This document shows positions 1,993 through 37,061 of a DNA stretch of 64,000 nucleotides, in pieces. Position numbers and translations under genes: made by a program. This DNA comes from a bacterium. Its GTDB lineage: Bacteria > Bacteroidota > Ignavibacteria > SZUA-365. Numbering within the stretch: position 1 is the first letter of the stretch; the number at the start of each line of letters is the position of its first letter. Below the pieces are notes generated by a model. That model saw nothing but the letters and a program-made list of their open reading frames with translations, did not search any database and had not been told where the DNA came from. The stretch lies in the NCBI GenBank assembly GCA_020444325.1, contig JAHLLD010000001.1, forward strand, positions 580,964 through 644,963, read 5' to 3'.

Positions 1993-2003
1993 CGCATCAC
2001 CCG

Positions 2004-2149: not shown

Positions 2150-2262
2150 AAAGCGAAGGAGGAAGCGAGGCTCCCGCATTCCTGAGCGCCAGCGAAGGCA
2201 CTCCCGCGTTCCTGAGCATCAGCGAAGGAACTCAGGCGCGACCGCAAGGCGGTCGCTCTCTG
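2150..2262. repeat. Three imperfect direct repeats of roughly 27 bp (AGCGAAGG..CTCCCGCrTTCCTGAGC), followed by a perfect hairpin gcgaccgcAAGGcggtcgc
   Basis: Read directly in the long 5' region of the gene starting at 2320: agcgaaggaggaagcgaggctcccgcattcctgagcgcc / agcgaaggcactcccgcgttcctgagcatc / agcgaaggaactcaggcgcgaccgcaaggcggtcgc. Confidence 0.4.
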
Positions 2263-2319
2263 CCTTGCTTCCGACGCCGTTCGCCGATAAATTGAATTTT
2301 TTACCATAGATCGAAATTC

Positions 2320-4452: not shown

Positions 4453-4476
4453 TTGTAACACCCCATCCGGTAATGC

Positions 4477-5994
4477 ATGCAGGAAAACGATAAGGAATAC
4501 AGGGAAGAAGAGGACGAGCGCACGCCGGCCTATGAAGAGGACATCTCTCCGGCCGGGGATGACCCGGCTGGGGATGACCCGGCTGGGGATGACCCGGCTG
4601 GGGATGACCCGGTCGAGGAAGAAAGTGCGCATGAACCATACTGGGAGGAACCGGTGGATGAAGAGCCGGAAGATGAGGGACGCAGCTACGTCAAGCCTTC
4701 CGAACGGTTGTACGACACCGCACGCAGCGTTGAACGGGTCATACTTGTCGGCGTCTCGCGTCCCCCTTCGCAGATGCGCTTTGAAACCGACGAACATCTC
4801 GAGGAGCTCGAACTGCTCACCGAAACCGCGGGGGCCGAGGTGGTGGAAAAGATTTTCCAGAACCGCGCGGCCATCAGTGTCACCATGTTCATCGGCAAAG
4901 GAAAGGCGGAGTTCCTCGCAGAGCGCTGTGAAGAACTCGACGTGCAGACGGTGATTTTCGACGATGACCTGTCGCCGGTGCAGCAGCGCAACCTTGAGCG
5001 CAAGCTCAATCGCAAAGTCATCGATCGCACTTCCCTCATCCTCGATATTTTCGCCCTGCATGCGCGCACCAACGCGGCGAAGACGCAGGTCGAACTCGCG
5101 CAGTACGAATACCTGCTTCCGCGGCTCACACGTATGTGGACGCATCTCTCAAAGCAGTACGGCGGTATCGGCACCAAGGGTCCGGGTGAAACCCAGATCG
5201 AAACCGATCGCCGAATCGTGCGCGACCGTATCGCGCATTTGAAGGACAAACTCGCGCGCGTCGATCGCCAGCGTGCCACGCAGCGAAAGAATCGCCGCGA
5301 CACCACACGTGTTTCCCTCGTGGGATATACCAACGTCGGGAAATCCACCCTGCTCAACATGCTCACCGGCGCGGATGTACTGGCGGAGGACAAGCTGTTC
5401 GCGACGCTTGATTCGACCGTGCGCTCTGTGGACATCGAGGGACGCGAGGTGCTGTTTTCCGACACCGTCGGCTTCATCCGCAAGCTGCCTACCAGGCTGA
5501 TTGAGAGTTTCAAGAGTACGCTCGATGAAGTGGTCGAGGCGGACATCATCCTGCATGTGGCCGATGTTTCGCATCCGTCATTCAAGGAGCAGATCGAGGT
5601 GGTGCGCGATACGCTCAAGGAACTCGGTGCGGAGCAGACTCCGACCATCATGGTGTTCAACAAAATCGACCGCATGGAGAATACCGGGGCGATGGCGGGA
5701 CTCAAGAGCGAGTACCCGTACGCGGTGTTCATTTCCGCGGCGCGCGGCATCAATCTCGGCGAACTCAAAGCCGCCGTGCTGCTCATGCTCGAAGAGCAGC
5801 ATCGGGAAAAGACTTTCGTCATCAGTCCCCCCGACTTCGCAATCGCCGCTGAATTCCACCGCCTCGCACGCATCGTCGATGAGCGCTACGAGGAAGACCA
5901 TATAGAAATTCGCTGTGTCCTGCCGCCTGACGCCGAACAGCGGCTGCTGAATGTACACGCGGGAAAGGTGCGTGTGACGGAGAACAATGCATGA
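4477..5994 (+). CDS. hflX: GTPase HflX with an acidic N-terminal extension of about 70 aa
   Basis: It aligns along its whole length to E. coli HflX in my recall (VIDRTSLILDIFALHARTNAAKTQVELAQYEYLLPRL, GPGETQIETDRR, G1 motif GYTNVGKST, and DTVGF). The N-terminus is an Asp/Glu-rich stretch containing PAGDDx4. Confidence 0.9.
   Translation: MQENDKEYREEEDERTPAYEEDISPAGDDPAGDDPAGDDPAGDDPVEEESAHEPYWEEPVDEEPEDEGRSYVKPSERLYDTARSVERVILVGVSRPPSQMRFETDEHLEELELLTETAGAEVVEKIFQNRAAISVTMFIGKGKAEFLAERCEELDVQTVIFDDDLSPVQQRNLERKLNRKVIDRTSLILDIFALHARTNAAKTQVELAQYEYLLPRLTRMWTHLSKQYGGIGTKGPGETQIETDRRIVRDRIAHLKDKLARVDRQRATQRKNRRDTTRVSLVGYTNVGKSTLLNMLTGADVLAEDKLFATLDSTVRSVDIEGREVLFSDTVGFIRKLPTRLIESFKSTLDEVVEADIILHVADVSHPSFKEQIEVVRDTLKELGAEQTPTIMVFNKIDRMENTGAMAGLKSEYPYAVFISAARGINLGELKAAVLLMLEEQHREKTFVISPPDFAIAAEFHRLARIVDERYEEDHIEIRCVLPPDAEQRLLNVHAGKVRVTENNA
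4549..4608 (+). repeat. 15-bp tandem repeat x4 (ccggcYggggatgac), encoding PAGDD x4 inside hflX
   Basis: Read directly: ccggccggggatgac ccggctggggatgac ccggctggggatgac ccggctggggatgac. Confidence 0.9.
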
Positions 5995-8243: not shown

Positions 8244-9068
8244 ATGAAACACACAGCCGCCATACTGCTCGCGCTCATGTTGTTCACAGGTTGTGAACAG
8301 ACGGTGGATACCGACTGGCCGGATCATGAAGAGAAACTCGTCGTCACCGGTTTTCTTCAGTTTCGCACGGATTCGGTGTTCGTCTACGCGCGTGTGAATC
8401 GTACGCTTCCGCTCTCCGAGCCGTTCAATGACAGCAAGGCCATCATCAACGATGCGCTCGTACAGGTGCGCGACGCAGCCATAACGCATGATATCCCGCG
8501 CGACAGCAGGTTTTATCCCCTCCAGTATGATTTCAATTACCGGGGTGTGTTCGTGCGTGATGCCAGCAAAGACTACTCCTTCACCGTCAGGCAGGGAGGA
8601 AAAACAGCGAACGCAGCACTGATAATTGATGAGAGCAGCGCGGAGTTTGATCAACTCGAGATCAGCGAGACAGGGAGTTCCGGATACGTGCACGCGCGGT
8701 GGACACTGCGCACACCGGACAGGCGCAGTACTGTTACCTGCTATTTCGAACACTGGGACAGCCGTCATCAGACCTGGATGGAGACCCAGTATTTTGATCT
8801 CAACGATTACAGTCAGCGTGACGGCGACGTCCTTCGCGGCGAGAGCTATGTGTGGACGGGTACGAACGAAACGCATCCCCGCCTTCGCTACGTCCTTGTC
8901 GTACGCGATGGCGTGTACACTGATTACAGCAATACACGCTGGTCGTGGGACAGCGGTGGAGGCATTTTCGAGCCTGAATCGAAAAACCCTCCATTCAACG
9001 TAACCGGCGATGGCATCGGTTTTGTCTGGTATGAATTCCGGGGAGATCCCGTGGAGGTTGTCTATTGA
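8244..9068 (+). CDS. Lipoprotein, DUF4249-like, a family often paired with TonB-dependent receptors (copy 1)
   Basis: Lipoprotein signal MKHTAAILLALMLFTGC. It sits immediately downstream of the receptor gene. It has the same length and the same N- and C-terminal patterns as the following ORF (GCEQT...EEKLVV...; ...GDGIGFVWYEFRG). Confidence 0.5.
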   Translation: MKHTAAILLALMLFTGCEQTVDTDWPDHEEKLVVTGFLQFRTDSVFVYARVNRTLPLSEPFNDSKAIINDALVQVRDAAITHDIPRDSRFYPLQYDFNYRGVFVRDASKDYSFTVRQGGKTANAALIIDESSAEFDQLEISETGSSGYVHARWTLRTPDRRSTVTCYFEHWDSRHQTWMETQYFDLNDYSQRDGDVLRGESYVWTGTNETHPRLRYVLVVRDGVYTDYSNTRWSWDSGGGIFEPESKNPPFNVTGDGIGFVWYEFRGDPVEVVY

Positions 9069-9943
9069 TTATGCAGTTTCTGCATATTTTCAGCGTGCTT
9101 CTGCTGCTCGTCGCCTTTGCCGGCTGTGAGCAGACTCTGGATATCAACGAGATCCAGGAGGAAGAAAAACTCGTGGTCTGTGGCGGCGTGTTCGTTACCC
9201 CCGATTCCCTGTTTACGAATTTCTGGTTTCAGCGCACCGGATCCCTGGGCAAAGCCTACCGCGGTGAAGATATGATAGTCAGCAATGTCGATCTCACTCT
9301 GCAGAGCGGAGGGCAGGATATTCCACTCCCGCAGAATAAAGGCTGGTATTACGGGGAAACCATGGACCGTGAGCTGATGTCCGCCCGGCGTCACGCAGCC
9401 ACCGGGGGAGCAACGGATTTCACCCTCAGCTTCTTCTGGAAAGAACACCGCATCCCCGTCGAGTTGCACGCCCCCGAGCTGCCGGTTTCGCTTCCAGCCG
9501 TAAACATCACTGAAGCGATGCAGGACGGTACACCGAGCTACGAAATCGCGTACGCCTACCCTGATTTCCGGGATTATAGTGAAGTAGTCATCTACTTTGA
9601 TATTTTTATTGATTCGACGAAACAATGGCAAGACTATGTGCGGGCCCGCGTGAACAATTGGCTCAACTGGCCATTTACCGTGGTGAACGGTATGCGTCTA
9701 TATACACTCCGCGATTGGCGTCCCGTAAACACCATTGCACGCTTCCGATACCGTATCCAAATTTCCGATGCTGTCCAGACAGAGGCTCGCAGGGCCATGC
9801 ACCTCCAGGCGCAACATTACACTGACGACGAACTGCACCCCGTCTTTCGTCCCACCGGCAGCAATCCGGATTTCAACGTGTACGGAGACGGCACGGGGTT
9901 TGTCTGGTACGAGAGGTTGGGACCATGGATAGAAATTCCGTAG
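9065..9943 (+). CDS. Lipoprotein, DUF4249-like, tandem paralog (copy 2)
   Basis: Signal MIMQFLHIFSVLLLLVAFAGCEQT. C-terminus ...GDGTGFVWYERLG matches copy 1. Its start overlaps the stop of copy 1 (9065-9068). Confidence 0.5.
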   Translation: MIMQFLHIFSVLLLLVAFAGCEQTLDINEIQEEEKLVVCGGVFVTPDSLFTNFWFQRTGSLGKAYRGEDMIVSNVDLTLQSGGQDIPLPQNKGWYYGETMDRELMSARRHAATGGATDFTLSFFWKEHRIPVELHAPELPVSLPAVNITEAMQDGTPSYEIAYAYPDFRDYSEVVIYFDIFIDSTKQWQDYVRARVNNWLNWPFTVVNGMRLYTLRDWRPVNTIARFRYRIQISDAVQTEARRAMHLQAQHYTDDELHPVFRPTGSNPDFNVYGDGTGFVWYERLGPWIEIP

Positions 9944-9946
9944 GAT

Positions 9947-10651
9947 ATGCGCATGTCTGAAGAACGACCTGAACCCCGGCCCGGCACCCTGTACGTAGTG
10001 TCCACTCCCATCGGCAACATGGATGACATCACACTGCGCGCGCTGCGCCTGCTGCGCGAGGTGGACCTCATCGCGGCTGAGGACACGCGCACGACCCGCA
10101 ACCTGCTGCGTCATCACGGCATCGAGACCGAGTGCATCAGCTATTACGCGCGCAATGAAACGCAGCGCATTCCCATGCTGATCGATCATCTGCTCGCACC
10201 ACGCTCGCTGGCCGTCGTCTCGGATGCCGGTACGCCCGGTGTGTCCGATCCCGCCGCGCTCCTCATCGCCGCCGCGGTAGAGAACGACATCGAAGTCATT
10301 CCCATCCCCGGCGCATCCGCTGCGCTCGCGGCACTGGTGGCGAGTGGACTGCAGATGGACCGCTTCCACTTCGAGGGCTTCCTCCCGATCAAAAAACGGC
10401 GCCGCAGCCGCATCGAAGCATTGAAAGACGAAACGCGCACGGTCATCATGTATGAATCCGTGCACCGTCTCGTGAAAACGCTTCAGGAATTGCACGAGAT
10501 GCTGGGCGACAGGCGCGTATCGGTCTCCCGTGAAATCACCAAGCGCTTTGAGGAAACCGTGCGCGGCAGCCTTTCCGAAGTCCTCGCCCATTTTCAGGAG
10601 CATCCCCCGAAGGGCGAATTCGTCATCGTTCTCGAAGGCAGCAGGGAATAG
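9947..10651 (+). CDS. rsmI: 16S rRNA (cytidine1402-2'-O)-methyltransferase RsmI
   Basis: GTLYVVSTPIGNMDDITLRALRLLREVDLIAAEDTRTTRNLL...VSDAGTPGVSDP...FEGFLP is the canonical tetrapyrrole-methylase-fold RsmI sequence. Confidence 0.9.
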   Translation: MRMSEERPEPRPGTLYVVSTPIGNMDDITLRALRLLREVDLIAAEDTRTTRNLLRHHGIETECISYYARNETQRIPMLIDHLLAPRSLAVVSDAGTPGVSDPAALLIAAAVENDIEVIPIPGASAALAALVASGLQMDRFHFEGFLPIKKRRRSRIEALKDETRTVIMYESVHRLVKTLQELHEMLGDRRVSVSREITKRFEETVRGSLSEVLAHFQEHPPKGEFVIVLEGSRE

Positions 10652-12030: not shown

Positions 12031-14127
12031 ATGAGACAGTTCATACATATCCTGTTCGTTTCCTTATTCACGACAGCAATCGTATCAGCCCAGTCCGTCA
12101 GCTGGCAGAATGTCGGTCCCTTCGGCGGCGAAGTGAATGACATCATTACACTTGAGAGCGGGGTGATGTATGCCGGTACGACGTATGGAGGGATATACAG
12201 GTCCACCGATGGAGGAATGCACTGGGAACTCGCGACAGCTGGACTCAGTCATGCGTTTCAGTACAACTACTGTTACAGTCTGGAAACCGATGCTGATGGC
12301 GTGCTGTATGCCGGGACGCATTACGGGCTGTACCGCACGACGGATGATGGCGCGACATGGACGCAGCACACCGAGGGATTGGACAACTGGACGCGTATCC
12401 AGGTGCTGCTCAACGATGGAAACGGAACGCTGTTTGGGGGAGTGTACAACAGCGGGGTGTACCGGTCCACCGACAGGGGGGAAACATGGAGCGAATCGAA
12501 TGAGGGACTGAGTAATACCTCGGTCAACGATCTGGCCGTGGATTCCGAGGGACGGCTGTATGCTGCGACGGAGAACGGATTGTTTCGTTCCATCGACAAT
12601 GGCGACAGCTGGACGGAGATGAGCGAGGGACTCGAATACTCCTGGGTGAATTCACTTTTCATCACTCCAGGCGATACAATAATTGCAGGAGGCAGAGGCT
12701 CTTCGAGTATCAGCGTGGACCATGGAGCGACCTGGACCCCGGGGCTCTCCTTCGGCTGGCACTGGACAGTGTACGCGGATGCGGATGGCAGCTTCTATGC
12801 AGGTGGAAATACAGGTATTGTGTTCAAATCCACCGACAGGGGAAGCAGCTACGAGACAGTTACCAAGGTGCCTGATGCGACCTTCCACAGAATGCAGCCG
12901 TCGGCACGCGGTGGCATTATTGCAGCAACGGAGAACCACGGTGTCATCGAATCCATGGACGGTGGTCTCACATGGGAAAGCAGAAACAGCGGACTTGCAG
13001 CCACCGATGTCATCGAGCTCGTCCACGGAGACGCCGGCCTGTTCGCGGGTACCTACGAAGGCGTGTATCACAGCACGGATGACGGTGCCACATGGATGCA
13101 TCGCGTGACGGAGGAAAGCGGTGTGAATTTCCGCGCATTGGGTATCAGCAGCAGCGGCCGTCTCTTCGGTAGTGCCTCCGGTGTCATATCCATCAGTGAT
13201 GACAACGGTGTCACCTGGCGGTATGGTGACAGTACACTCACTGAAACGTGGGCCGACTGTTTCGGCTTCGGTCCGAACAACACGGTCTACGCCTGCTACT
13301 GGGATGGCATTTTCCGTTCCACCAACGGAGGGGACAGCTGGTCTGAGATCAGTAAAATCGAGGGTGTCGCGAAACAGGTGTGCTATGTCACGCCGGCGGG
13401 AAGCATCATCATCGGGACCAGGAAAGACGGTCTGTTTCGTTCGACCGATGGCGGGTTAACATTTACTCAGGTGCCGAGCGCGGGATGGGACAATGACGAC
13501 CACACCGCCATCATTGAAGCGGCAAACGGCGATCTCCTGCTTACGAATTTCAATGGCGTGTTCCGTTCCTCTGATGACGGCGTGAGCTGGACCATGCTCG
13601 GGCAGGTACCGACGTATGGCGTGAAAGACATCGCGGAGGATTCAAAGGGAAACCTGTTCATCGCCTCGCGCGGAGGCGGGGTTGCCGTATCCACCGATGG
13701 CGGTGCGACGTGGACTGAGGTCAACGACGAACTCGGTCATCTCGTTGCGTATGCATTGTACATCGACGATCAGGACAATATTTACGTCGGAACCCGGGGC
13801 GGCGGCGTATTCAAAGGACGATTCAGCCTCACCGCCGTCGAGCAGACGCCGGTTCTTCGTCCCTCGACTGTCACACTGCACGCGAATTACCCCAACCCCT
13901 TCAATCCCGGTACCACCATTCCCTTCACTCTCAGCACGGCTGCGGAGATTTCGCTCATCGTATATGATGCGCTCGGTCGCAAGGTTGCGACCATCGCCGC
14001 GGGACACTATGGCGCAGGAACGCATCGCGTATACTTTGACGCAAAGGATCTCCCGGGCGGCGTCTATTCGGCGCGGCTTTCCGCAGGCGCTTCGATGCAG
14101 CACATTCGCATGTTGCTGCTGAAATAA
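12031..14127 (+). CDS. Secreted BNR/Asp-box (sialidase/Ycf48-like) beta-propeller repeat protein with a T9SS C-terminal sorting domain
   Basis: Signal MRQFIHILFVSLFTTAIVSAQS. Many repeats of the S-x-D-x-G-x-T-W type (STDGGMHW, TTDDGATW, STDRGETW, SIDNGDSW, ...). The last roughly 80 aa, VTLHANYPNPFNPGTTIPFTL...GGVYSARL..., is a type-A T9SS C-terminal domain. Confidence 0.7.
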   Translation: MRQFIHILFVSLFTTAIVSAQSVSWQNVGPFGGEVNDIITLESGVMYAGTTYGGIYRSTDGGMHWELATAGLSHAFQYNYCYSLETDADGVLYAGTHYGLYRTTDDGATWTQHTEGLDNWTRIQVLLNDGNGTLFGGVYNSGVYRSTDRGETWSESNEGLSNTSVNDLAVDSEGRLYAATENGLFRSIDNGDSWTEMSEGLEYSWVNSLFITPGDTIIAGGRGSSSISVDHGATWTPGLSFGWHWTVYADADGSFYAGGNTGIVFKSTDRGSSYETVTKVPDATFHRMQPSARGGIIAATENHGVIESMDGGLTWESRNSGLAATDVIELVHGDAGLFAGTYEGVYHSTDDGATWMHRVTEESGVNFRALGISSSGRLFGSASGVISISDDNGVTWRYGDSTLTETWADCFGFGPNNTVYACYWDGIFRSTNGGDSWSEISKIEGVAKQVCYVTPAGSIIIGTRKDGLFRSTDGGLTFTQVPSAGWDNDDHTAIIEAANGDLLLTNFNGVFRSSDDGVSWTMLGQVPTYGVKDIAEDSKGNLFIASRGGGVAVSTDGGATWTEVNDELGHLVAYALYIDDQDNIYVGTRGGGVFKGRFSLTAVEQTPVLRPSTVTLHANYPNPFNPGTTIPFTLSTAAEISLIVYDALGRKVATIAAGHYGAGTHRVYFDAKDLPGGVYSARLSAGASMQHIRMLLLK

Positions 14128-14165: not shown

Positions 14166-14198
14166 GCGCCCTCGAAATATTCTCGAGGGCGCCTTTTT
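14166..14198. terminator. Bidirectional rho-independent terminator between convergent genes
   Basis: gcgccctcga(aatattc)tcgagggcgc is a perfect 10-bp stem followed by ttttt. It lies between the stop of the 12031..14127 gene and the stop of the OmpA gene at 14198. Confidence 0.6.
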
Positions 14199-16153
14199 CA
14201 TATCGGCGTCTTGACTTCAACCGCGACGGTGCGGCAATAAAATCTCCCCTCTGGTAAATCGTTGTCGTAGAGTTCCGGCGCCTCGCCGATGCCGCGGGCG
14301 GAGAGTTTCCTGTAGGACGGCTTTTCTTCAAGCAACAGCGCTTTGACGTTTTCCGCGCGGGCAGTAGAGAGCTGCTGGTTGTGATCCGCCTCCCCCAGCC
14401 TGTCAGTGGAACCGGTAATCTCGACCGAGGATGTCGACTTGATGGCCTCCCCGACGAAACGCCGGATCATGCGGCGGTTGTGCGGAAGAATATCGGAGCG
14501 GTCGAAATCAAAAACGATCAGCGACAGCCTCCCGATTTCAAACGAATTCTGTTTTTTGTGCACGGGAATCACCATCGACGATGCCGCTGTCAGTCCCCGC
14601 GTATCCTTCACCTTCAGTTCTGCCGTGAGCGCGTCTTCTCCACGCACGCGCGCTGCAAGCAAATCGTCGAGCTGCCAGCGCAGTTTCGCGGGGGGAGCGC
14701 CTTTTCCCTCAAAGGATGCCACCGCTTCCTCGCCGTGCAGCACCGTCATCGACCAGCGCTCCATCGCCGCTGTGCCTTCTGCACCGAGCAGCAATTCCAT
14801 TTCCGGGGGGGTGATGTCGTATTCACTCAGGTGTTCATGCACGACGGGACGGAACACTTCATCGTATTCCGACATGATTTCCACGCGGCGGTTTTCCTCA
14901 TCGCCTTCCGCATAGGCCTGGCTCGATGGCATCTGCGGCAGCTTCTGCGTACTCAGCGCAATACGGCTGCTGTCAATTCCCCATACATCGATGAAATATC
15001 TGCGCACCGTGTTTGCGCGGCTGTAGGCAAGATCCGTATTCCCGCGTTCCTCGCCCTTGTCGTCCGTCGATCCGACGAGGGTGATGCGAATTTCAGGATT
15101 CAGACGCAGCCGGCGTCCGACGATATCCAGCAGATGATAGTATATCGCCATGGTTTTTCTGGGCAGTCCACTTTCAGTAAAGGCCGCGGTATTGCGCGCG
15201 TCCATGATGCGATACTTGTCCGGAAGCCGGGCGGAGTTTTTCTCAAAGAACACATACGGAAGCAGTGGAAAGGTTTCCGTGACGAAGGTTTCGACAATAT
15301 CGATTTCCGCATCCGTGCTGCTTCCGATGGATGCCACCGGCGGCTTCGGCGCCGGGGGTGGCGGTGGCGGTGGAGCGGGTGCGGCGGGAGGCGGTTCCTC
15401 CACGCCGGGCTCAATGCGCCAGGTCAGCGATGCCCCTGCCGAGAGCGCGGAGATGTTCCAGTCATATCCTGTCGTGGCGTCAGAGATTGGCCAGGAGTAA
15501 AGCAGCTCCGGTGAGAATTCCATCCCGCCGCTGAGCTTCAGCGTATACCCTATTCCACCGACAAGAGCACTGCGCAGCTGCGCATCATCGAACTCCCCAC
15601 TGCCGTTCGAGCGTGTGCGTGTGAAACCGGGATACAATGCCCCCTGGGGCGAAACGATGCGCTCTTCCTGTGCCCATGATGCGGCGACAACGGGGAGTCC
15701 CACCCTGAACGCCCCGGAAACAAAGAGGGGAAATGACAGCGGCGCTATTTTCCCGCCGAGTTCAAACGTCAGATAATCGAGTTCGACGTCTTTCGTGTAC
15801 TCGCGGACCAGCGGAGCAAAGGTGTTGTCCTCTCCTGTGGGTACGATGATACCGTTATCACAATACGTGCTGAGGCGTCCCCCGCGCGGAGCGTATCCGA
15901 GTCGCACGCTTCCGCGCAGCCATTCGAGAAGTTCGACTTCGCCGACCAGCGCGACGGAAATTCCTTCGCCTCTGCCCGACGTGAACGCGCCACATTCTCC
16001 TTCCGAAGCGCGCACATCCTGCCAGGTGTCATGCCAGACGCGATCATAGCCCGCGCGCAACCCGAGGTGCCAGATGGACTGGGACTTCGCGGCTGGCGTC
16101 GCGATGATGAAAAAAATGGAAAGGATGGAAAGATGAAATAATCTCCTTCTCAT
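14198..16153 (-). CDS. OmpA-family outer-membrane protein: N-terminal beta-barrel, Pro-rich linker and two OmpA-like peptidoglycan-binding domains
   Basis: Likely start at MRRRLFHLSILSIFFIIATPAAKSQ (ATG at 16153); the listed ORF extends 31 codons further upstream. Linker PPPAAPAPPPPPPPAPKPP. C-terminus ...TGSTDRLGEADHNQQLSTARAENVKALL... is the OmpA_C signature, and an internal copy reads VGSTDDKGEERGNTDLAYSRANTVRRYF. Confidence 0.8.
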   Translation of the reverse strand: MRRRLFHLSILSIFFIIATPAAKSQSIWHLGLRAGYDRVWHDTWQDVRASEGECGAFTSGRGEGISVALVGEVELLEWLRGSVRLGYAPRGGRLSTYCDNGIIVPTGEDNTFAPLVREYTKDVELDYLTFELGGKIAPLSFPLFVSGAFRVGLPVVAASWAQEERIVSPQGALYPGFTRTRSNGSGEFDDAQLRSALVGGIGYTLKLSGGMEFSPELLYSWPISDATTGYDWNISALSAGASLTWRIEPGVEEPPPAAPAPPPPPPPAPKPPVASIGSSTDAEIDIVETFVTETFPLLPYVFFEKNSARLPDKYRIMDARNTAAFTESGLPRKTMAIYYHLLDIVGRRLRLNPEIRITLVGSTDDKGEERGNTDLAYSRANTVRRYFIDVWGIDSSRIALSTQKLPQMPSSQAYAEGDEENRRVEIMSEYDEVFRPVVHEHLSEYDITPPEMELLLGAEGTAAMERWSMTVLHGEEAVASFEGKGAPPAKLRWQLDDLLAARVRGEDALTAELKVKDTRGLTAASSMVIPVHKKQNSFEIGRLSLIVFDFDRSDILPHNRRMIRRFVGEAIKSTSSVEITGSTDRLGEADHNQQLSTARAENVKALLLEEKPSYRKLSARGIGEAPELYDNDLPEGRFYCRTVAVEVKTPI

Positions 16154-16157
16154 GCTG

Positions 16158-19100
16158 CTACTCCACCACAACCATGACGCGCGTTTGCCGGTAGGTGCGC
16201 GTGCGCATTTCGTAACTGTAGATACCGCTGGAAAGTCCACTGACATCGTACGTCAGTTGATAGCGTCCGTGCGTATACCAGGTGTCGGTGAGTATGGCGA
16301 CCTCGCGTCCGCGAGCATCCCGCAGTGCGATGCGCACCGGCGTATCCTCCACCGTCTCGAACTCGATGGTGGTCAGGGCGGAAGCAGGATTCGGGTAGTT
16401 CTGCTCGAGCGCGTCGCGGTTTTCACTGATGGAGATGCTGTCGATGCCGCAGCGGGGATTGATGGTGATGGGCGTCATGCACCCGTCACCGAACAGTGCG
16501 ATGAAGAGGGTGGAATCGGATGCAAAAGTGATACTGTCGGTGCGCATGACGAACTGCATGCGGTCGGATGCCGCCACACGGAAGGAAATCCAGCCGACGG
16601 GACCCGAGGTCACCTGCTGATTGTCGCGCAGGGCGATTCGTACACCGTCAGGACGCAGGGTATCGCGCACGGGCCGGGCGGTAAACACCGGCTCGAAGCC
16701 GAGATACTCGAGCGCGCGACGGTGAAAGAGTATGGAGAAATCCAGGTCGAGCGGGTTCTGTGGAATATCGCGATTGAGAAAGACCGGGAGCCTCAGTACT
16801 TCCCCGATGTCCGCAGTGATGGTCGTGTCCATGCAAAGCGTGATCAGCCACGGCGGTGTGTACCCGCTGCCGGTGATGGAGAGTGTGGTATCGACTTCCT
16901 CGCAGCTGACGCGCGTAACGAGACGGATGCGGGCATCGTAGGCAACTGCGGCGCGGGGTCTGAAGAGAAAATCCAGGCTGCGCGATGCCCTCGGCGGAAC
17001 GCTCAGCGGAAGCGCTCCTGCGTAGGCGAACACGCCCTGGTCGGGCACAAAGCTCACGTTATCGATGATGAGAGCATCGAGATAACTCGGATTTTGAAAA
17101 GTGACACTGACCGGCATGGCTGCCGTCAGCACCGGTGTCGCCGGAAATACCACCGATGCGATGCTCGGGATGTACTGCAGCACGCGGGACCCGACGAGAT
17201 TGATGCTGTATACCTGCTGTCCCAGCCGCGTGGTTGCGGCAACGTGCAGCTGCGCAACGGATTGTACGCTGGCCACGCGCGCGGGGAAAAACCTGATGTC
17301 TATGCTGTCGGCGAAATGTGGCGGCGTGTCCCGTGGCGGCAATCCGCTGAAGGTGCGTCCCTTCCAGCTGAAGGCCGCAGCGTCCGTTCCCGTAATCCAG
17401 ATCGAGTCGATGGTGATGGGCACGCTGCCGTCGTTCACCAGTCCGATCACGCGCAGCACACTATCGCAACGTGTGGCTTCGGTGAAGACGATGGTGGACC
17501 ATGGGACGAAAAGCGGGATGATGATGCCGCGTCCCTGCAGCTGTCCGTTCGCTTCCACCGTGCACGGATTGCCCGACTGCACGGCGATGCCGCCTCCATA
17601 TGTCGTGTTGTTCGACGGCGCGAATTCCACCGTTACCAGCATGGTGTCGCGATACTGCAGGGTGCTTCCTATGGGCGGCACGGCACTGAGTACGGTAAAG
17701 CCGGCGGGCAGCGGGGGAATGGCGTCGACGACGACGGGAGTGGGACTCGGGTTGGTAATCCGCAGCACACGGGTCAGCGTGGTACCGACCTCCACATCCC
17801 CAAAATTCGTCATGGCGTCGATGGTGAGCTTCGGTTCGATATTCGTCCCTGTCAGCAACATGCGCAGCTCGCCTTCCGGTCCGTCGGTATCGAATACGAG
17901 ATCGGCGGTTTCCGTCACAAAATCCGGTGCGCCTGCGGGACAGTATTGAATGATATACTGCCGCTGTCCCCCCACGGGAAGAATTTCATTCGTCGCGGGA
18001 AGCGGCGGGAGGAAAGTGAATTTCACCGACCCGGTGATGCTGACGCTGCGCAGCGTCAGTGCGGCGCCGGTATTGTTGGTCACTGTCACCGTATCCTGCC
18101 TGCACTGGCAGTTGATCACATTTCCCGCCTGCAGATAACCGGGATCGAACACCAACGAGCCGAACACCCCGTTCCCTTCCAGAATTACGCGTTTGATGAT
18201 CTGGCAGCCGACGTCCTGAAAATTCAGTGTGTCGCGGTAGAATACCGGGTTGAGCGGACGAAAGTTCACGTTCACCGTTGCAGCGCTGCCAGGTGCGATG
18301 TTGACCCGGTTCCCGCCCATGATCGAAAACACGCGGCCTGAACTGAGGTACATGAATACGTCTCTCGTATCGATACCGTTGTTGTCGATCGTCACCGGCA
18401 GGGTTGCCGACTGTCCGACGATCACATTTCCGAACTGTACGAGCGAGTCGCGGGCGGACAGCTGCACATCAACAATGCGTCCATCGAGCGGGATGTCCCT
18501 GTACACAATACAGCCGCGGAAATTCATGCGTATGCGCGCCGTGTCGGTGTAGTATCCCTCGACCGACGACTGGAAACGAATGTACATGCGATGTGATCGT
18601 CCCACCCGCGCGGTGAACGGCAGAGTGGTGGGGGTGGAAAACACCGGGTTGCTGAATTCGATAGCCTCGACCACGAAGGGCTCGTTCGTGCGGTTCGTCA
18701 GGTAAAACTGTTCCGCCAGGTTGAGGGACCGACGACAGGGCTGATTCGGGCGGTCGAAGCTGATCGAAGAAAGCGTGAGGCGAGCAATGTCAACATTCCT
18801 CCCGAATAATGGCACACGTCCACTGCCGGGACAGACGTCATCCGACGCAATCAGCAGCGTATCGACGAAACTGCCGGTATCCGCCGGAGCGAAACTGAGA
18901 AGCACATCGCGGCAGTCACCCGGCTGCAGCGTGACAGGCAGCGTCCAGCCTCCACCCGGTACCGCGGTAAACGCCGGTGAAGAAGTCAGCAGCGACGTCA
19001 CGGTAATGGGTCCTCCGCTGGTATTGCAGATCTGCAGCGTGGTATCGCTTGTGCTCTGATTCACGCAGCCGAACAGCGTATCGAACACCACGCGTCCGGG

Positions 19101-20237
19101 CGTCGGTGTCAGCTGCGTTCGACGTTGAATATCGATGGGAATAACCGATGCGGGATTGCAACTGTTCAGCGGAGTGACATTCAGTGTCGCACGTATGTTT
19201 CCGGTCACACGCAGCTGCGTCTGCAACTGCACCGTTGACGGCTGATTCTGCGACAGCGTCAGGAAGTTGCTGCCCAGGATAAACTGTCCCGCGTCGGGCC
19301 CGCTGAGCGAGAGTGCGACCTGTTGCGCACAGGACGAAGTATCGGTAACCGTGACGGTGAGAGTCGTGTCGGCGGTGCAGCCGAGTGGAAGGGAAAAGGC
19401 GGCGGGGGTGATAAAGACGGACTGTGGGACAATACGCGTCGATGGAACAAATCGAAGCGTTCCGCGCCGGTTGCCGCGTCCATTGAAATCCGAGGCGTCG
19501 CAGAGCACGTCTCCTCCCGCTTCGTTGCAGCGGAAATACAGGATCAGTCCCGCCTCATCGCCCTGCAGCGAAGCATAGCGCAGGCAACGCAGCTCGGCCT
19601 CACCGAGCGTGCGATTCCACATGCGTATTTCGTCAAGTTCACCGGTGAGGGGTCGCTGCAGCGACGGATCGTTTGTCTGTCCGTTGAAACTTCCCCACTG
19701 CAGGTAGCTCATCGTCGCGCGCATTGCCGTGAGCGGAGTATCCGCATTGCGTCCCTGTGCCTGCAGTGTACCATCGATAAACAGCCGCGCCTGCTGCGTA
19801 CCTCCATCCCACATGGCGGCGACATGCATCCATACGTCATAGCGCATGGCGGTTTTGATCGTGGTGTTGTCGAAGTCTCCGAATCGCGATACGTCCGGAC
19901 TGAGTGTGAACACCAGTGAGTCGCTTTCGTCAATGAAGAGCAGCCAGCGATCGTCGGTATCGGTGCGCGGACCCCATTCGCCCCCGATATACTGGCGCAC
20001 GCCGGACTGCCGGCTTACGCGCATCCACAGCTCCACGGTCATCGCCCGGGTTGAATCCACCGAGCGTAGTGCGGGTGTGGTGAAGACGTCCACGTAGTCG
20101 AGATTTCCCCCGGAAAAACGCAGTGCATTGCCGAGACAGCGCGTATCGCTGTCGCAGGTCGACTGCGCCGTGAGCAATTGCGGCAGCGCGAGAAGCAGGA
20201 GTAGAGGGGCGACGAAATGTCTGCGTGTCAACAGCAT
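16158..20237 (-). CDS. Giant secreted T9SS cargo protein: LamG/concanavalin-like lectin domain plus multiple choice-of-anchor-D/Ig-like domains plus T9SS C-terminal domain
   Basis: Signal MLLTRRHFVAPLLLLLALPQLLTAQS. N-terminal LamG-like region (LRFSGGNLDYVDV...ELWMRV...LFIDGTL...DEIRMWNRTL). Repeated FGNVIVGQSATLPVTIDNNG-type beta-sandwich modules follow. C-terminus LEQNYPNPASALTTIEF...SSGIYSYEM... is a T9SS C-terminal domain. Stop TAG at 16158-16160, 4 nt before the OmpA start. Confidence 0.75.
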   Translation of the reverse strand: MLLTRRHFVAPLLLLLALPQLLTAQSTCDSDTRCLGNALRFSGGNLDYVDVFTTPALRSVDSTRAMTVELWMRVSRQSGVRQYIGGEWGPRTDTDDRWLLFIDESDSLVFTLSPDVSRFGDFDNTTIKTAMRYDVWMHVAAMWDGGTQQARLFIDGTLQAQGRNADTPLTAMRATMSYLQWGSFNGQTNDPSLQRPLTGELDEIRMWNRTLGEAELRCLRYASLQGDEAGLILYFRCNEAGGDVLCDASDFNGRGNRRGTLRFVPSTRIVPQSVFITPAAFSLPLGCTADTTLTVTVTDTSSCAQQVALSLSGPDAGQFILGSNFLTLSQNQPSTVQLQTQLRVTGNIRATLNVTPLNSCNPASVIPIDIQRRTQLTPTPGRVVFDTLFGCVNQSTSDTTLQICNTSGGPITVTSLLTSSPAFTAVPGGGWTLPVTLQPGDCRDVLLSFAPADTGSFVDTLLIASDDVCPGSGRVPLFGRNVDIARLTLSSISFDRPNQPCRRSLNLAEQFYLTNRTNEPFVVEAIEFSNPVFSTPTTLPFTARVGRSHRMYIRFQSSVEGYYTDTARIRMNFRGCIVYRDIPLDGRIVDVQLSARDSLVQFGNVIVGQSATLPVTIDNNGIDTRDVFMYLSSGRVFSIMGGNRVNIAPGSAATVNVNFRPLNPVFYRDTLNFQDVGCQIIKRVILEGNGVFGSLVFDPGYLQAGNVINCQCRQDTVTVTNNTGAALTLRSVSITGSVKFTFLPPLPATNEILPVGGQRQYIIQYCPAGAPDFVTETADLVFDTDGPEGELRMLLTGTNIEPKLTIDAMTNFGDVEVGTTLTRVLRITNPSPTPVVVDAIPPLPAGFTVLSAVPPIGSTLQYRDTMLVTVEFAPSNNTTYGGGIAVQSGNPCTVEANGQLQGRGIIIPLFVPWSTIVFTEATRCDSVLRVIGLVNDGSVPITIDSIWITGTDAAAFSWKGRTFSGLPPRDTPPHFADSIDIRFFPARVASVQSVAQLHVAATTRLGQQVYSINLVGSRVLQYIPSIASVVFPATPVLTAAMPVSVTFQNPSYLDALIIDNVSFVPDQGVFAYAGALPLSVPPRASRSLDFLFRPRAAVAYDARIRLVTRVSCEEVDTTLSITGSGYTPPWLITLCMDTTITADIGEVLRLPVFLNRDIPQNPLDLDFSILFHRRALEYLGFEPVFTARPVRDTLRPDGVRIALRDNQQVTSGPVGWISFRVAASDRMQFVMRTDSITFASDSTLFIALFGDGCMTPITINPRCGIDSISISENRDALEQNYPNPASALTTIEFETVEDTPVRIALRDARGREVAILTDTWYTHGRYQLTYDVSGLSSGIYSYEMRTRTYRQTRVMVVVE

Positions 20238-20241
20238 CCTC

Positions 20242-21780
20242 CTACCGTACCACCAGCTTGCGGCTCACTTTCTGTGTCCCGACCCGCAGCTGATAGTAGT
20301 ACACACCGGCCGGCAATCCCTGCGACTGCAGCACCGCTTCGTGTCGTCCCGCTTCAAAGCTGCCACGCGCGATGGCGGCGATAAGACTGCCGCGTACATC
20401 GTAAAGCAGCAGTTCCACATTTGCGCGACCGGCAAGGGTGAAGGGAATCGTGGTGTGTCCGTTGGCAACGGGATTCGGATAATTCTGCGAGAGCGAAAAA
20501 CCGAGCGGCGCGGCAGCATCATGCTGCGCCGTGGTTGTACGCACGAGTGGCAGCGGGGTAAAGCGTCCCCCGAGCAGCTGCGTCACGTCATCTGCGGGCA
20601 ATTCGAACCAGTGTTCCAGCAGCTCGGAATAGATTTGACGATAATCGAAATCATGCAGAAGATCGCCGCTGTTGTCGGTCACATCGAAATCGGGATCCTG
20701 TCCGAGTACGCCGCTGTTGACCGACTCCCCGAAGAGAAACTGCACGGAAGCCGTCCCATGATCCGTGCCGCTGCTGCCGTTTTCCCGTGTGCGGCGACCG
20801 AATTCCGACATGGTCATGCCGACCACGCGTTTTCCCAGTCCCTGGTTTTTCAGGTCGTCGACGAATTCCTCGGCTGCGGACGAAAGATTCTGCAGCAGGC
20901 GCGCGTGCGCGGACGCCTGATTGCTGTGCGTGTCGAAGCCCCCGAGGTACACCATGTACACTTTCGACTGCAAACCCCCGCTGATCAGGCGCGCCACGAG
21001 GCGCAGCTGCTGCGAGAGTGAGCTGCCCGAGTAATTCCCGACATTCGTGCCACTGGTGAACGCATCGTTGACGCGCTGGGAATACACATCGCTCTGTTCC
21101 TTGATGGCACGCACGAAAAGGTATTCTTCTCCGTATGGCGTTCCGCCTGGCACGGCTTCATCGACCTGGTTGCGGCCCAGACGGAAGAAAGTCTCGGGAT
21201 CCGCGAGCGTGATACCCATGTTTCCTCTGTCCGCCTGCAGCATCAGCGAAAGTGTGCCGCCGATCTGTACCGCGAAGGGATCGGGCGGTAGTTGCAGCGG
21301 GTATGTCGGGTGCGTGATTTCCAGGTATCTCCCCAGCCAGCCCGTGTCCAGAACGCTTCCGGCCCCGGAGCCTGTCAGCCAGATATTTTCGGAGCGGAAA
21401 TGCGAGCGGTTCGCATTCTCATATCCCACCCCCTGTACGGCAACGAGTTTACCTGCGTCGAAGAGATTGCGCATGCCCGTCATGTCGGGGTGGAAGCCCA
21501 TGGTGGGATTCGCGATGCGCAGCACCTCCTGCGGAGAAATGCCGAGGGTGGGACGATTTTGATAATACTGCTGATTGGTATAGGGGACGAAAGTATTGAG
21601 TCCGTCATTCCCCCCGAACAGCTGAATGATGACCAGGACGTTATCGTTTTCCGAAAGCTGTCCCGATCCGATCGCACCGTAGCTGCCGGCATGCACCGGA
21701 ATGCCGCGGAAGAACAGCGGTACGGATGCGACTCCGGCGGAGGCAGCGATAGCGCGGGAAAAAAATTCGCGTCGTTTCAT
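20242..21780 (-). CDS. DUF1501 family protein (sulfatase/alkaline-phosphatase-like) with a twin-arginine (Tat) signal peptide and a T9SS C-terminal sorting domain
   Basis: Start MKRREFFSRAIAASAGVASVPLF is a Tat motif (RRxFF). Hallmark DUF1501 motifs YMVYLGGFDTHSNQ and MSEFGRRTRENGSSGTDHG are present. The last roughly 80 aa, SQNYPNPVANGHTTIPFTL...GVYYYQLRV...VVR, is a T9SS C-terminal domain. The listed ORF starts 33 codons upstream of the Tat signal. Confidence 0.8.
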   Translation of the reverse strand: MKRREFFSRAIAASAGVASVPLFFRGIPVHAGSYGAIGSGQLSENDNVLVIIQLFGGNDGLNTFVPYTNQQYYQNRPTLGISPQEVLRIANPTMGFHPDMTGMRNLFDAGKLVAVQGVGYENANRSHFRSENIWLTGSGAGSVLDTGWLGRYLEITHPTYPLQLPPDPFAVQIGGTLSLMLQADRGNMGITLADPETFFRLGRNQVDEAVPGGTPYGEEYLFVRAIKEQSDVYSQRVNDAFTSGTNVGNYSGSSLSQQLRLVARLISGGLQSKVYMVYLGGFDTHSNQASAHARLLQNLSSAAEEFVDDLKNQGLGKRVVGMTMSEFGRRTRENGSSGTDHGTASVQFLFGESVNSGVLGQDPDFDVTDNSGDLLHDFDYRQIYSELLEHWFELPADDVTQLLGGRFTPLPLVRTTTAQHDAAAPLGFSLSQNYPNPVANGHTTIPFTLAGRANVELLLYDVRGSLIAAIARGSFEAGRHEAVLQSQGLPAGVYYYQLRVGTQKVSRKLVVR

Positions 21781-21791
21781 GCGTCCCCCTC

Positions 21792-23339
21792 TCAGTGCAG
21801 TTGAAAATCTGGAGCCGACGCAATGCGCGTCAGCAGGTTGCGAAGATTCGTGTCGGCGTTCGGCGCATCGATATTCCATTCATACACCGGCGCCCCTCCC
21901 AGCATGGTCTGCAGGTAGCCGTCGCGCCGTGTCTGCGACACTTCGACCGGAAGCAGGAGCAGCAGCATGTCATCGAGCAGCTGGTTGGCATCCGAAACGT
22001 TGTCGAACGTCTTTCCCCAGGCGACAATATCCATAGGCGTCTGCGAAGACCCGCCTGGAAACTGTCCTGTAATGAAGCGCTCGGCGAAGGACTTGCGGTA
22101 GGGATACGTGGTAGTGCTGATCCAGGTCCTGTAGCCATCCCATCCCGCCACCGTGGGCGGATACAGCAGATGTTCCTCGAGCGTTTTCATATCCGCTACC
22201 AGACGGTCGCCTCCGGGATTTGCATTGAGCTGCCGGGCGAGTCCGACCGAAAACACGGCCGGCGATTTGATCATTGCGCCGATATTGACGGTGTCGAAAA
22301 AATGTGCGCTTTTCAGCAGCGTCTGCACGACCGGATAGATATCGTAGCTGTTGTCGCGCAGCAGCTGTGCCATGGCTTCAACCACCTCGCCGTCAACCGC
22401 CTCGGGATTGTCATAGACGAAAAAGGAATACAGCTTGCGGCAGATGAATTTCGCGACGGAGTCATCGTCGAAAATGATATCCACCACTTCGTCTCCCTCA
22501 AAGCGTCCGTCGAGCGACGATCGTCCCACAATCGTGCGTCCCATAAACGTCTTGTTTCCCGCGTCATGCAGCAGGGGACTGAATGAGGCGTCATAGCCCG
22601 TGAACTCATCGAGCTGCCAGCCGGTCAGACAGCGCGCCGCTTCCTTGATATCCTGCTCGGTGTAATTCCCCTCACCCATGGTGTAGAGTTCCATGAGTTC
22701 GCGCGCATAGTTCTCATTGGGATTGCCTGCGATGGAAATGGCGCCGTCGAGATAGCGCAGCATGGCGGGGTCACGGTTCACATCCTTCATCAAATCGCGG
22801 AAATTCCCGAGTGCGTACGAGCGGAACAGTGCGTTCTGCTGATAGAGGAACTGCGGGATTTCCACAACACCCGCTTCCGTGGTGATGTGCCGGTGCCAGA
22901 ACAGCGTCATCTTTTCGGTGATGTTCATGCCGCTGCCCGCCATCCGTTGCGTCCACCACGCACGCAGCGCATTCATCCACGATTTGTTCTGCTGCCGGTA
23001 TGCGTTTTCCTCTTCCGCCGTGGTGGGCTGCGCCTGCAGTTCCCCAACCCACGATCCCGGGGCAGACGGCGCACCGACGGGTTGCAACAGCACATCGACC
23101 AGCTCGCCGGGCTGCATGCTTTCGGCGGACTTGATTTCCGTCCACGTTGGCAGAAAACCCGCACGACGCAGCAAATGCGCTGCACGCCGCCGGTCCCACG
23201 GCTCCTGCGGCGTGGGGATATACGGTTCGAGTCCCGCTGCCGTCCTTCGCTCCACTCCATATAGCATCGGGGGCAGCCTGCGGCGTACCCGTATGCCCCT
23301 TCCCCCATCCGACTGTACAGCAATCTCAGCCATGCGCAA
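21792..23339 (-). CDS. DUF1800 family protein, the usual partner of DUF1501
   Basis: The conserved DUF1800 block ENYARELMELYTMGEGNYTEQDIKEAARCLTGWQ and HLLRRAGF near the N-terminus. Stop 11 bp upstream of the DUF1501 start. Confidence 0.7.
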   Translation of the reverse strand: MRMAEIAVQSDGGRGIRVRRRLPPMLYGVERRTAAGLEPYIPTPQEPWDRRRAAHLLRRAGFLPTWTEIKSAESMQPGELVDVLLQPVGAPSAPGSWVGELQAQPTTAEEENAYRQQNKSWMNALRAWWTQRMAGSGMNITEKMTLFWHRHITTEAGVVEIPQFLYQQNALFRSYALGNFRDLMKDVNRDPAMLRYLDGAISIAGNPNENYARELMELYTMGEGNYTEQDIKEAARCLTGWQLDEFTGYDASFSPLLHDAGNKTFMGRTIVGRSSLDGRFEGDEVVDIIFDDDSVAKFICRKLYSFFVYDNPEAVDGEVVEAMAQLLRDNSYDIYPVVQTLLKSAHFFDTVNIGAMIKSPAVFSVGLARQLNANPGGDRLVADMKTLEEHLLYPPTVAGWDGYRTWISTTTYPYRKSFAERFITGQFPGGSSQTPMDIVAWGKTFDNVSDANQLLDDMLLLLLPVEVSQTRRDGYLQTMLGGAPVYEWNIDAPNADTNLRNLLTRIASAPDFQLH

Positions 23340-25846: not shown

Positions 25847-26051
25847 GCACAGGATACAGCCTACTCCTTCCACCGCCTTGGATCATCCGGATTCAGGAAA
25901 CGCCTGCCCTTTCTTACGTTGCCTCTCACCGATGCGTGGCGTATTTTCCCGCAGACGCTAATCCGCAACATGATTTTTTTACTCGCGCACATCGCCTGTG
26001 CAGCGGGAAGGAGTATTGTAATGCACCATGCATCCGAAAGTGGAGGGCGGT

Positions 26052-27170
26052 ATGTCTGTTGACAGTTCCTCCTCTCCACGCAGACTTATCATCTGCTGCG
26101 ATGGAACCTGGAATTCTCCGGGGAAAGGTGTGCAGCGGCTCGGAGAACGCGAGCAATGCACAAATGTCGTGAAAACCGTACGATCGATCGCGCCGTTGGA
26201 CGAACACGGCCAGGATCAGATCGTGTACTATGACAGTGGTGTCGGAACGGCGGGACTGTTCGACAAGTACGTCGGGGGATTTACCGGCCACGGAATCCGT
26301 GAGAACATCGAGCAGGCTTACCGCTTTCTTGCAAACAATTACAGGGACGGCGACGAAATATGGTGCTTCGGCTTCAGCCGGGGCGCGTATACCGTGCGCT
26401 CTCTCGGGGGATTGATCAATACCGTCGGACTCCTCCCAAAAGGATCCCTGAAGTTCTTTCCTCTTTTTTACAACTACTATCGCACCGCGAAATCCCGGCG
26501 CAAGGATCTGCCGGAATACGATGAGATCACCTCCATCATCGGCACGAACCGCAAACCCCCAATCACCTTCATGGGCGTGTGGGATACGGTGGGGGCTCTC
26601 GGAGCGCCGACGCCGCTGCTGGGACGCATTACGCGTTCATGGGTCGGCTTCCACGACACACGTGCAGGGAATATTCAGTACGCTTACCACGCGCTCGCGG
26701 TGGATGAGCTGCGCAAACCCTTCGCACCAAGTGTGTGGACCGAGAAGGACGATGTCTGCAAGGTCATGAAGCAGGTCTGGTTCGCCGGTGCGCACTCGAA
26801 CGTGGGCGGAGGCTATCTCGATTGCGGACTGTCGGATGGCGCCCTGATCTGGATGATGAACAACGCCACCCGGCATGGACTCCGCCTGCTCGATGACTGG
26901 ATGGAGCAGGCCGATCGCATCCAGGCGAATCCCGATGCGGAGATCGTCCATTCCTATAAACTGATGTACAGGATTTTCGGAGCGATTTTCCGCTGGCGCT
27001 ACCCGCGTCCCATCGGCGGCAAACACCGGGATGTGAACGGGACGCGGGTAAGCGGCTGCGAGGAATTCGTGCATGACAGTCTCCACTGGCGCGCGCGAAA
27101 GAACAAGCACACCGTCAATCCCCGGAACCTGGCCTACGGGATTGAACACCTCCCGGTGGACAAGCCCTGA
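26052..27170 (+). CDS. DUF2235 alpha/beta-hydrolase (Tle1-like phospholipase family)
   Basis: RRLIICCDGTWNSPG is the DUF2235 N-terminal signature. GFSRGA is a nucleophile-elbow GxSxG. Length is about 370 aa. An alternative start lies at 26028. Confidence 0.75.
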   Translation: MSVDSSSSPRRLIICCDGTWNSPGKGVQRLGEREQCTNVVKTVRSIAPLDEHGQDQIVYYDSGVGTAGLFDKYVGGFTGHGIRENIEQAYRFLANNYRDGDEIWCFGFSRGAYTVRSLGGLINTVGLLPKGSLKFFPLFYNYYRTAKSRRKDLPEYDEITSIIGTNRKPPITFMGVWDTVGALGAPTPLLGRITRSWVGFHDTRAGNIQYAYHALAVDELRKPFAPSVWTEKDDVCKVMKQVWFAGAHSNVGGGYLDCGLSDGALIWMMNNATRHGLRLLDDWMEQADRIQANPDAEIVHSYKLMYRIFGAIFRWRYPRPIGGKHRDVNGTRVSGCEEFVHDSLHWRARKNKHTVNPRNLAYGIEHLPVDKP

Positions 27171-36971: not shown

Positions 36972-37061
36972 GCCATTTGAAGCCGCTGTAAATCAAACAA
37001 TGGAATTGCGGCCGTTTCGCAACAGCGATACCTCATTGAAACGGTCTTTATGGAGGAACAC

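Follow-up and report, generated by a model that had tools for sequence, protein, structure and literature searches.

Can one enzyme be carried across the inner membrane by twin-arginine translocation (Tat) and then leave the cell through a type IX secretion system (T9SS)? This question is raised by a 64,000-nucleotide stretch of contig JAHLLD010000001.1 (assembly GCA_020444325.1, positions 580,964 to 644,963; hereafter the window) from a bacterium of the Ignavibacteria, in which a DUF1501 gene encodes a protein that begins with a twin-arginine signal and ends in a type-A T9SS sorting domain. We consider it probable that this enzyme uses Tat and then T9SS, one after the other, and that the route is conserved in its family. 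The gene and the parts of its product are as follows (pLDDT, predicted local distance difference test).

20242-21780, minus strand: DUF1501 gene, 512 amino acids plus TAG, identical to the NCBI entry 'DUF1501 domain-containing protein [bacterium]' (P0001)
21785-21791, minus strand: Shine-Dalgarno-like GAGGGGG between the DUF1800 stop (21792-21794) and the DUF1501 ATG (21780)
21688-21780, minus strand: predicted Tat-type signal peptide, residues 1-31, with n-region MKRREFFSR, h-region A10-F24, R25, and VHA (29-31) followed by GS
21760-21777, minus strand: twin-arginine motif K2-R3-R4-E5-F6-F7 (family consensus KRRDFLK)
20551-21639, minus strand: catalytic alpha/beta domain, residues 48-410, DUF1501, with the fold of the alkaline-phosphatase/sulfatase superfamily
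20500-20550, minus strand: linker, residues 411-427, of low model confidence (417-424 below pLDDT 50)
20245-20499, minus strand: T9SS type-A C-terminal sorting domain, residues 428-512, a beta-sandwich with YPNP, GVYYY and a KLVVR end

The coordinates 20242-21780 given by the first-pass annotation were exact, and the gene lies on the minus strand, with 512 codons and a TAG stop. Its product starts with MKRREFFSRAIAASAGVASVPLFFRGIPVHAGS, ends in ...GVYYYQLRVGTQKVSRKLVVR and is 100% identical to P0001 across 512 amino acids. The ATG at 21780 sits 11 nucleotides past the stop codon of the DUF1800 gene, with GAGGGGG ahead of it, and at orthologous loci an in-frame stop is found 4 codons upstream of the same MKRR start. 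The spacing from the DUF1800 stop and the GAGGGGG, the identity to the NCBI protein and the upstream stop in orthologs together make the start secure. A longer open reading frame (ORF) reaching 21879 (545 amino acids) was ruled out, as it overlaps DUF1800 by 88 nucleotides, is not conserved and is excluded by the ortholog stop.

The N-terminus carries every sequence feature of a predicted Tat signal. Across 93 full-length homologs that are 41-83% identical, R3 and R4 never change and F6 is kept in at least 90%, with the remaining signal variable and MKRRDFLK as the N-terminal consensus. RRxF[LI] was present in 116 of 120 homologs, mostly at residues 3-4, the exceptions being two truncated entries and two RK variants; in a second clade (Ignavibacteriales/Melioribacteraceae) it was present in 115 of 120, three of the others having RK and two being truncated. 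The motif is followed by an h-region of 15 uncharged residues (AIAASAGVASVPLFF), which is weakly hydrophobic, then by R25 and by an AxA-like V-H-A at residues 29-31 that could serve as a cleavage site. K or R was the first charged residue past the h-region in 293 of 357 homologs (82%). A basic residue in the c-region is a usual trait of Tat signals and disfavours export by the general secretory (Sec) pathway. Residues 1-43 were disordered in the AlphaFold2 model. The motif had been called textbook by the first-pass annotation. This holds for the family's MKRRDFLK; the window copy is slightly off, since K-R-R-E-F-F-S at residues 2-8 departs from RRxFLK at the last two positions, and it is matched by neither Tat hidden Markov model (HMM). 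Comparison of the family N-terminus with the Tat signal peptide of E. coli CueO (chain 9e04_H) gave E = 0.42, which is not significant and was not used.

At the other end of the protein, the proposal that the last ~80 residues form a type-A T9SS domain was borne out. This segment passes both curated cut-offs, with 38.7 bits for TIGR04183 (T9SS type A sorting domain, NCBIfam; residues 434-512, cut-off 23) and 31.2 bits for PF18962 (Por_Secre_tail; residues 434-511, cut-off 27). The matches end at residue 511/512 of 512, that is, at the extreme C-terminus, and residues 428-511 were modelled as a seven-strand beta-sandwich, with pLDDT above 90 over strands 442-511. TIGR04183 matched 90 of the 93 homologs and PF18962 matched 77; the tail always stopped within a few residues of the C-terminus and carried YPNP, GxY and K-x-x-hydrophobic-K/R end motifs. 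As FlgD_ig also matched 28 of the 93, we considered whether the protein is, like other DUF1501 proteins, a periplasmic Tat substrate, with a C-terminal beta-sandwich that looks like a T9SS tail but serves in binding, as an Ig-like or FlgD-like module, and not in secretion. The window copy's Pfam score, just 4 bits over the cut-off, and the lack of T9SS core genes seen in the window would also fit this explanation. Nevertheless, we judge it quite improbable, given the 38.7 bits against 23 for TIGR04183, its matches in nearly all homologs and the strictly terminal position of the tail with its usual end motifs. Moreover, the next gene of the operon and others nearby bear the same tail, and the closest tail-less relatives are about 100 residues shorter, as for an add-on sorting module. 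The tail does not establish attachment to the cell surface, which the first-pass annotation had also envisaged, because type-A cargo can also be released.

The twin arginines could be an inherited DUF1501 trait in a signal that is read by Sec, with folding in the periplasm before T9SS export. The signals of other tail-bearing proteins from related genomes bear on this. A scan of 717 kb, comprising the window and 39 loci from related metagenome-assembled genomes, identified 64 ORFs with a terminal type-A tail, and hydropathy was taken as the best 12-residue window of the h-region. All ten DUF1501 copies had the RR motif and hydropathies of 1.67-1.96 (window copy, 1.69). In contrast, the ~40 other tail ORFs with a complete N-terminus had classical Sec-type cores at about 2.0-3.35, and two tail-bearing neighbours of the DUF1501 gene each measured 2.52. 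RRxF occurred in only two of these ~40, both with Sec-like cores (2.5-2.8). This shows that the DUF1501 subfamily is a real outlier in signal type among the T9SS cargo of the same genomes.

Several observations nonetheless favour Sec followed by T9SS. Every proven T9SS cargo protein is Sec-type, the window protein is left unscored by either Tat HMM, and RK replaces RR in about 3-5% of the family. In two further tail-bearing proteins, a chance RR goes with a clearly Sec-like core, and tail carriers of the multicopper oxidase and dioxygenase-like families show KR rather than RR. On the other hand, a vestigial motif would decay, and yet RR is invariant in the 93 homologs down to 41% identity while its neighbours vary. 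Compared with Sec signals from these genomes, the h-region shows consistently lower hydrophobicity, with barely overlapping ranges, and the basic residue past it recurs in 82% of homologs. The RR of the 1359-amino-acid protein encoded next to DUF1501 (MLLTRRHFVAPLLLLL) is unconserved in its orthologs, unlike that of DUF1501, and illustrates how RR can arise by chance; that protein was ruled out as a second case of Tat signal plus tail, its core being Sec-like (2.52) and its RR missing in orthologs. On balance, reading of the signal by Sec appears unlikely to us.

Some tail carriers in the scanned loci are of interest in themselves. A multicopper oxidase and a dioxygenase-like protein with T9SS tails are encoded at L019 and L020 (ORFs at about 8550-10370) and at L015 (9263-10273); the Por_Secre_tail match of the dioxygenase-like protein is partial and below the Pfam cut-off. 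Both families are usually Tat-exported elsewhere and have KR, not RR, here (MTKRSTLRAW..., MEKRTFLKST...), which hints that most families switch to Sec upon gaining a T9SS tail. A protein of ~1100 amino acids without a Pfam domain is encoded on the reverse strand of L011 (7918-11238 in plus-strand coordinates, 1494-4892 on the reverse complement), in the same Ignavibacteria genome bin as L001. It starts ...SLSRRDFMRTTTCIIACLLCTVTLLHAQ, with a perfect RRxFM motif and a very hydrophobic core, and has a T9SS-type tail by a local HMM of the C-terminal domain (CTD).

We further determined how far the pairing of RR motif and tail extends. A search over 1.84 billion cluster representatives returned 1,913 matches at E<=1e-30, from which the best 150, mutually at most 50% identical, were taken. 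With a narrow tail HMM built from the DUF1501 family, 105 of these 150 nearest representatives had a terminal tail together with the RR motif. This HMM under-called the domain: when 20 apparent tail negatives were re-scanned with Pfam, 17 had Por_Secre_tail, and 16 of the 17 have RR. Both signals were therefore present in at least 121 of the 150 nearest representatives at 50% identity. Because of the under-calling, gains and losses counted by parsimony on a rough neighbour-joining tree were unreliable and were not used. True tail-less relatives mostly have ~400-430 amino acids. The sources were named as Ignavibacteria, Kapabacteria, Chlorobi, 'Bacteroidota', Rhodothermia, Melioribacter sp., Stygiobacter sp. 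and Marinimicrobia (Tara Oceans). The tail is thus not a lineage-specific fusion, as the first-pass annotation had asked, but belongs to an old and widespread architecture that spans several classes of the FCB group (Fibrobacteres-Chlorobi-Bacteroidetes). As judged from these sequences, the pairing is not a product of chance, given its co-occurrence in 116 of 120 and 115 of 120 homologs of the two clades and in at least 121 of 150 representatives. Both signals are present and under selection across a large family. The source of the window is a metagenome-assembled genome, in which mis-assembly or a mis-call might join the tail of some other gene to DUF1501. This is already refuted and carries virtually no weight, as hundreds of independent contigs, drawn from many samples and lineages, show the same full-length architecture with conserved synteny.

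A number of points weigh against sequential use of Tat and T9SS. First, precedent is lacking. T9SS cargo is described as reaching the periplasm by Sec (PMC9251779; PMC5837995), just as the first-pass annotation had stated, and the rules of T9GPred, the one cargo predictor found, derived from 102 proven cargo proteins, all without a Tat signal, reject candidates that have one (bioRxiv 10.1101/2023.03.31.535141). The DUF1501 protein departs from this rule of a Sec signal and no Tat signal because its N-terminus has twin-arginine features; we regard this as a point of interest rather than a reason to doubt its CTD. General reviews mention Tat only for type II secretion and other systems, and in the open-access literature we found no report of a Tat-dependent T9SS cargo or a Tat-to-T9SS route, and no characterisation of, or experiment on, DUF1501. 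Second, PF10518 and TIGR01409, the two Tat HMMs, gave no match to the window protein at E<=0.1, although they recognise 28-29 of the 93 homologs. Third, natural RK variants occur in the DUF1501 family, so strict dependence on Tat is perhaps not universal. Finally, the machinery of both pathways is assumed from lineage-level knowledge. A tblastn search with approximate E. coli TatA and TatC queries yielded nothing in the window and 36 related loci (about 650 kb), which are a small part of each genome, and none of the ten window proteins scanned reached the trusted cut-off for a T9SS core component. As for that lineage-level knowledge, each of the 11 Chlorobia/Ignavibacteria genomes surveyed in PMC3827258 has both tatA and tatC. 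The window contains three further tail-bearing genes, two reaching the TIGR04183 cut-off and one just under it, and four such genes in 64 kb argue that a T9SS exists. There is also no known mechanistic obstacle, since the large SprA barrel of T9SS lets folded proteins pass (PMC9251779).

Besides the 1359-amino-acid protein, the tail-bearing products of the window are a 698-amino-acid BNR/sortilin-type propeller (12031-14127, plus strand), which matches the F510_1955-family glycosylhydrolase model at 187 bits and has a Sec-type signal and a T9SS tail, and a 1229-amino-acid choice-of-anchor-D protein (54927-58616, plus strand) with a Sec-type signal, for which TIGR04183 scored 22.7 bits against the cut-off of 23. 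An outer-membrane barrel of the FadL/TodX family (63 bits) is encoded at 37050-38573 on the plus strand. Its sub-threshold matches to PorV/PorQ (43.8 against 90) and BamG (61 against 250) are the sole hint of a T9SS component in the window.

The nature of the cargo was approached from its conserved residues and its predicted fold. PF07394 (DUF1501) matched residues 49-394 with 96.2 bits (cut-off 27) as well as all 93 homologs, and the AlphaFold2 model built on these homologs had a mean pLDDT of 81.6. Foldseek returned 89 matches in the PDB at E<=1e-3, with TM-scores of only ~0.3 on the whole two-domain model. The top-ranking ones were S1 sulfatases (6b0j, E 9e-6, probability 1.0), YejM/PbgA, LtaS, 3lxq, which belongs to the alkaline-phosphatase superfamily, and PlcN (PDB 9gy2), a non-haemolytic phospholipase C. 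By sequence, no relative of DUF1501 was detectable in the PDB, and the CxPxR formylglycine motif is absent from the protein. Residues invariant in the 93 homologs include GGNDG (D59), S126-H127, D283-T284-H285, E326-F-G-R-R330 and D340-H341, of which D59, S126-H127, D283-T284-H285 and D340-H341 would fit a metal-dependent hydrolase or transferase of phospho- or sulfo-esters. DUF1501 would accordingly be a metallo-hydrolase-like enzyme of the alkaline-phosphatase superfamily.

The enzyme is encoded by the second of four tightly packed genes on the minus strand, and the cluster ends in a hairpin.

21792-23333, minus strand: DUF1800 gene, 513 amino acids (NCBI P0121), Pfam 373 bits, directly upstream of DUF1501
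16158-20237, minus strand: 1359-amino-acid protein with a Sec-type signal, Laminin_G_3, choice-of-anchor-D/ASH Ig-like repeats and a T9SS type-A tail
14198-16153, minus strand: OmpA-family outer-membrane protein with two OmpA domains and a Sec-type signal, the last gene of the cluster
14166-14192, no strand assigned: GC-rich hairpin with a 10 bp stem, between the convergent OmpA-like and BNR-propeller genes

The ATG of the 1359-amino-acid protein lies 4 nucleotides past the DUF1501 stop, inside TAGGAGGATG, and the start of the OmpA-like gene at 16153 was placed from the position of its signal peptide. The hairpin is likely a bidirectional terminator that closes the operon, judging from a consensus scan in which the number of such sites in the region was not above the shuffled expectation. 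L002-L004 have all four genes as well. At more distant loci, DUF1800 was always the direct upstream neighbour of DUF1501. L037 has a LamG-type gene with a T9SS tail alongside, L039 has a LamG gene followed by a tail-bearing ASH/Ig gene as well as the OmpA-like gene, and L040 retains only the DUF1800-DUF1501 pair. The company that LamG/ASH Ig-repeat and double-OmpA proteins keep with this pair in several clades suggests a surface module.

The N-terminus of DUF1800 differs between relatives. The window protein has neither a hydrophobic signal peptide nor a T9SS tail, and its N-terminal motif RRRLPPMLYGxERRT is conserved in the window clade; a T9SS tail was found in none of 120 DUF1800 homologs. 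Three states of the N-terminus were observed. In the first, seen in L037 and L040, there is no signal. In the second, which accounts for about half of the 120 homologs (P0121-P0240), a perfect RR motif (M-N/D/K-R-R-x-F-L/F, as in MNRRSFLTGW) is followed by a stretch of only 7-11 uncharged residues, shorter than a normal signal peptide needs; the RRRLPPMLYGxERRT of the window clade has the same layout. The third, a minority, has a full RR signal (P0209, P0225, P0228, P0152, P0148). These three states fit an exported protein that often relies on its neighbour. DUF1800 was modelled as an all-alpha protein (pLDDT 90.5, predicted TM-score 0.90). By fold it matched nothing significantly in the PDB (best E 0.17), and by sequence nothing at all; it thus appears, from this model, to have a fold without a solved representative.

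Taken together, from two sorting signals that would be used one after the other we infer that Tat and T9SS are both employed, and likewise where the protein is cleaved, where it ends up and what chemistry it performs. The twin-arginine signal would send the already folded DUF1501 protein over the inner membrane via the Tat translocase and would probably be cut off after VHA31. By analogy with known type-A CTDs, the enzyme would finish at the cell surface or in the medium. There it probably acts at the surface together with the giant LamG/Ig-repeat binding protein, because the two share the four-gene operon. Tat was probably retained since folding of the enzyme, its metal loading or its assembly with DUF1800 has to take place in the cytoplasm. 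The last of these options would extend to a heterodimer: DUF1501 and DUF1800 would associate in the cytoplasm, cross on the Tat signal of DUF1501 and then pass the T9SS pore by means of its single CTD. This extension is prompted by the N-terminal pattern of DUF1800 and by the missing signal peptide of the window clade, and we put it forward as a speculation that is rather unlikely to hold. If it did, both a Tat-to-T9SS pathway and piggy-back secretion through T9SS would be seen for the first time, the retention of Tat by the DUF1501 family, in contrast to the Sec export of all other T9SS cargo, would be explained, and a widespread, uncharacterised DUF1800/DUF1501 pair would be located on the cell surface.

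Should Tat and T9SS indeed act in sequence, T9SS, like type II secretion, would be fed by either inner-membrane pathway, and the family would provide a natural test of whether T9SS carries cargo that has folded in the cytoplasm, perhaps with metal or a partner bound. The substrate of DUF1501/DUF1800 would then have to be extracellular in these lineages, next to a giant lectin-like surface protein. As T9GPred discards Tat candidates, a large conserved class with two signals would be systematically missed. Were just one of the signals in use, the family would still illustrate the retention or loss of sorting signals after domain fusion.

The remaining window is ordinary chromosome, with dnaA, glnD, glutamate racemase, methylmalonyl-CoA mutase, ppiD, argS, fbp and hflX. 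The dnaA gene (45351-46802, plus strand) encodes all three DnaA domains, and the chromosomal replication origin may be nearby. The HflX GTPase (4477-5994, plus strand) has an acidic N-terminal extension of ~85 residues with four copies of a PAGDD tandem repeat. A 380-amino-acid protein (26028-27170, plus strand) contains a Tle1-like phospholipase catalytic domain of the type VI secretion system (PF09994, 271 bits) and has no evident signal peptide; no type VI secretion genes were noticed near it.

Compared with known systems, the proposed route would be a two-step secretion with a previously unreported pairing of pathways. PlcH and PlcN of Pseudomonas aeruginosa reportedly undergo Tat export followed by Xcp type II secretion, as Voulhoux et al. 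are said to have described in EMBO J in 2001, and this Tat-then-type-II secretion is the closest precedent. As with these enzymes, the inner step would be Tat, the outer step would take a folded protein, and the cargo would be a phosphoesterase-type hydrolase; PlcN itself is one of the structural matches of the DUF1501 model. Unlike in Pseudomonas, the outer step would be T9SS by way of a cleavable CTD, in the FCB group rather than in Proteobacteria. That Tat export feeds type II secretion is stated in general terms in PMC4899797.

Known type-A cargo such as gingipain RgpB and Flavobacterium ChiA shares with the DUF1501 protein the terminal beta-sandwich of TIGR04183/PF18962, a cleavable N-terminal signal and adjoining cargo genes, and differs in that the N-terminal signal of DUF1501 is of the twin-arginine type. 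Tat hitchhiker pairs, in which an obligatory, signal-less partner encoded alongside crosses on the signal of another protein, include the small and large subunits of hydrogenases and DmsA/DmsB. Their gene arrangement resembles that of a signal-bearing DUF1501 adjoining a signal-less DUF1800 in the window clade, L037 and L040, but some DUF1800 relatives have their own full RR signal, unlike the partners in such pairs. Finally, ordinary DUF1501 proteins (PF07394) of Proteobacteria and Planctomycetes have the same catalytic domain, a Tat-type N-terminus and the DUF1800-DUF1501 pair, the Tat motif and the operon having been mentioned before (PMC5122149). These proteins have ~400-470 amino acids and end after the catalytic domain (L008, P0279, P0317), whereas the window subfamily adds a linker and the T9SS tail.

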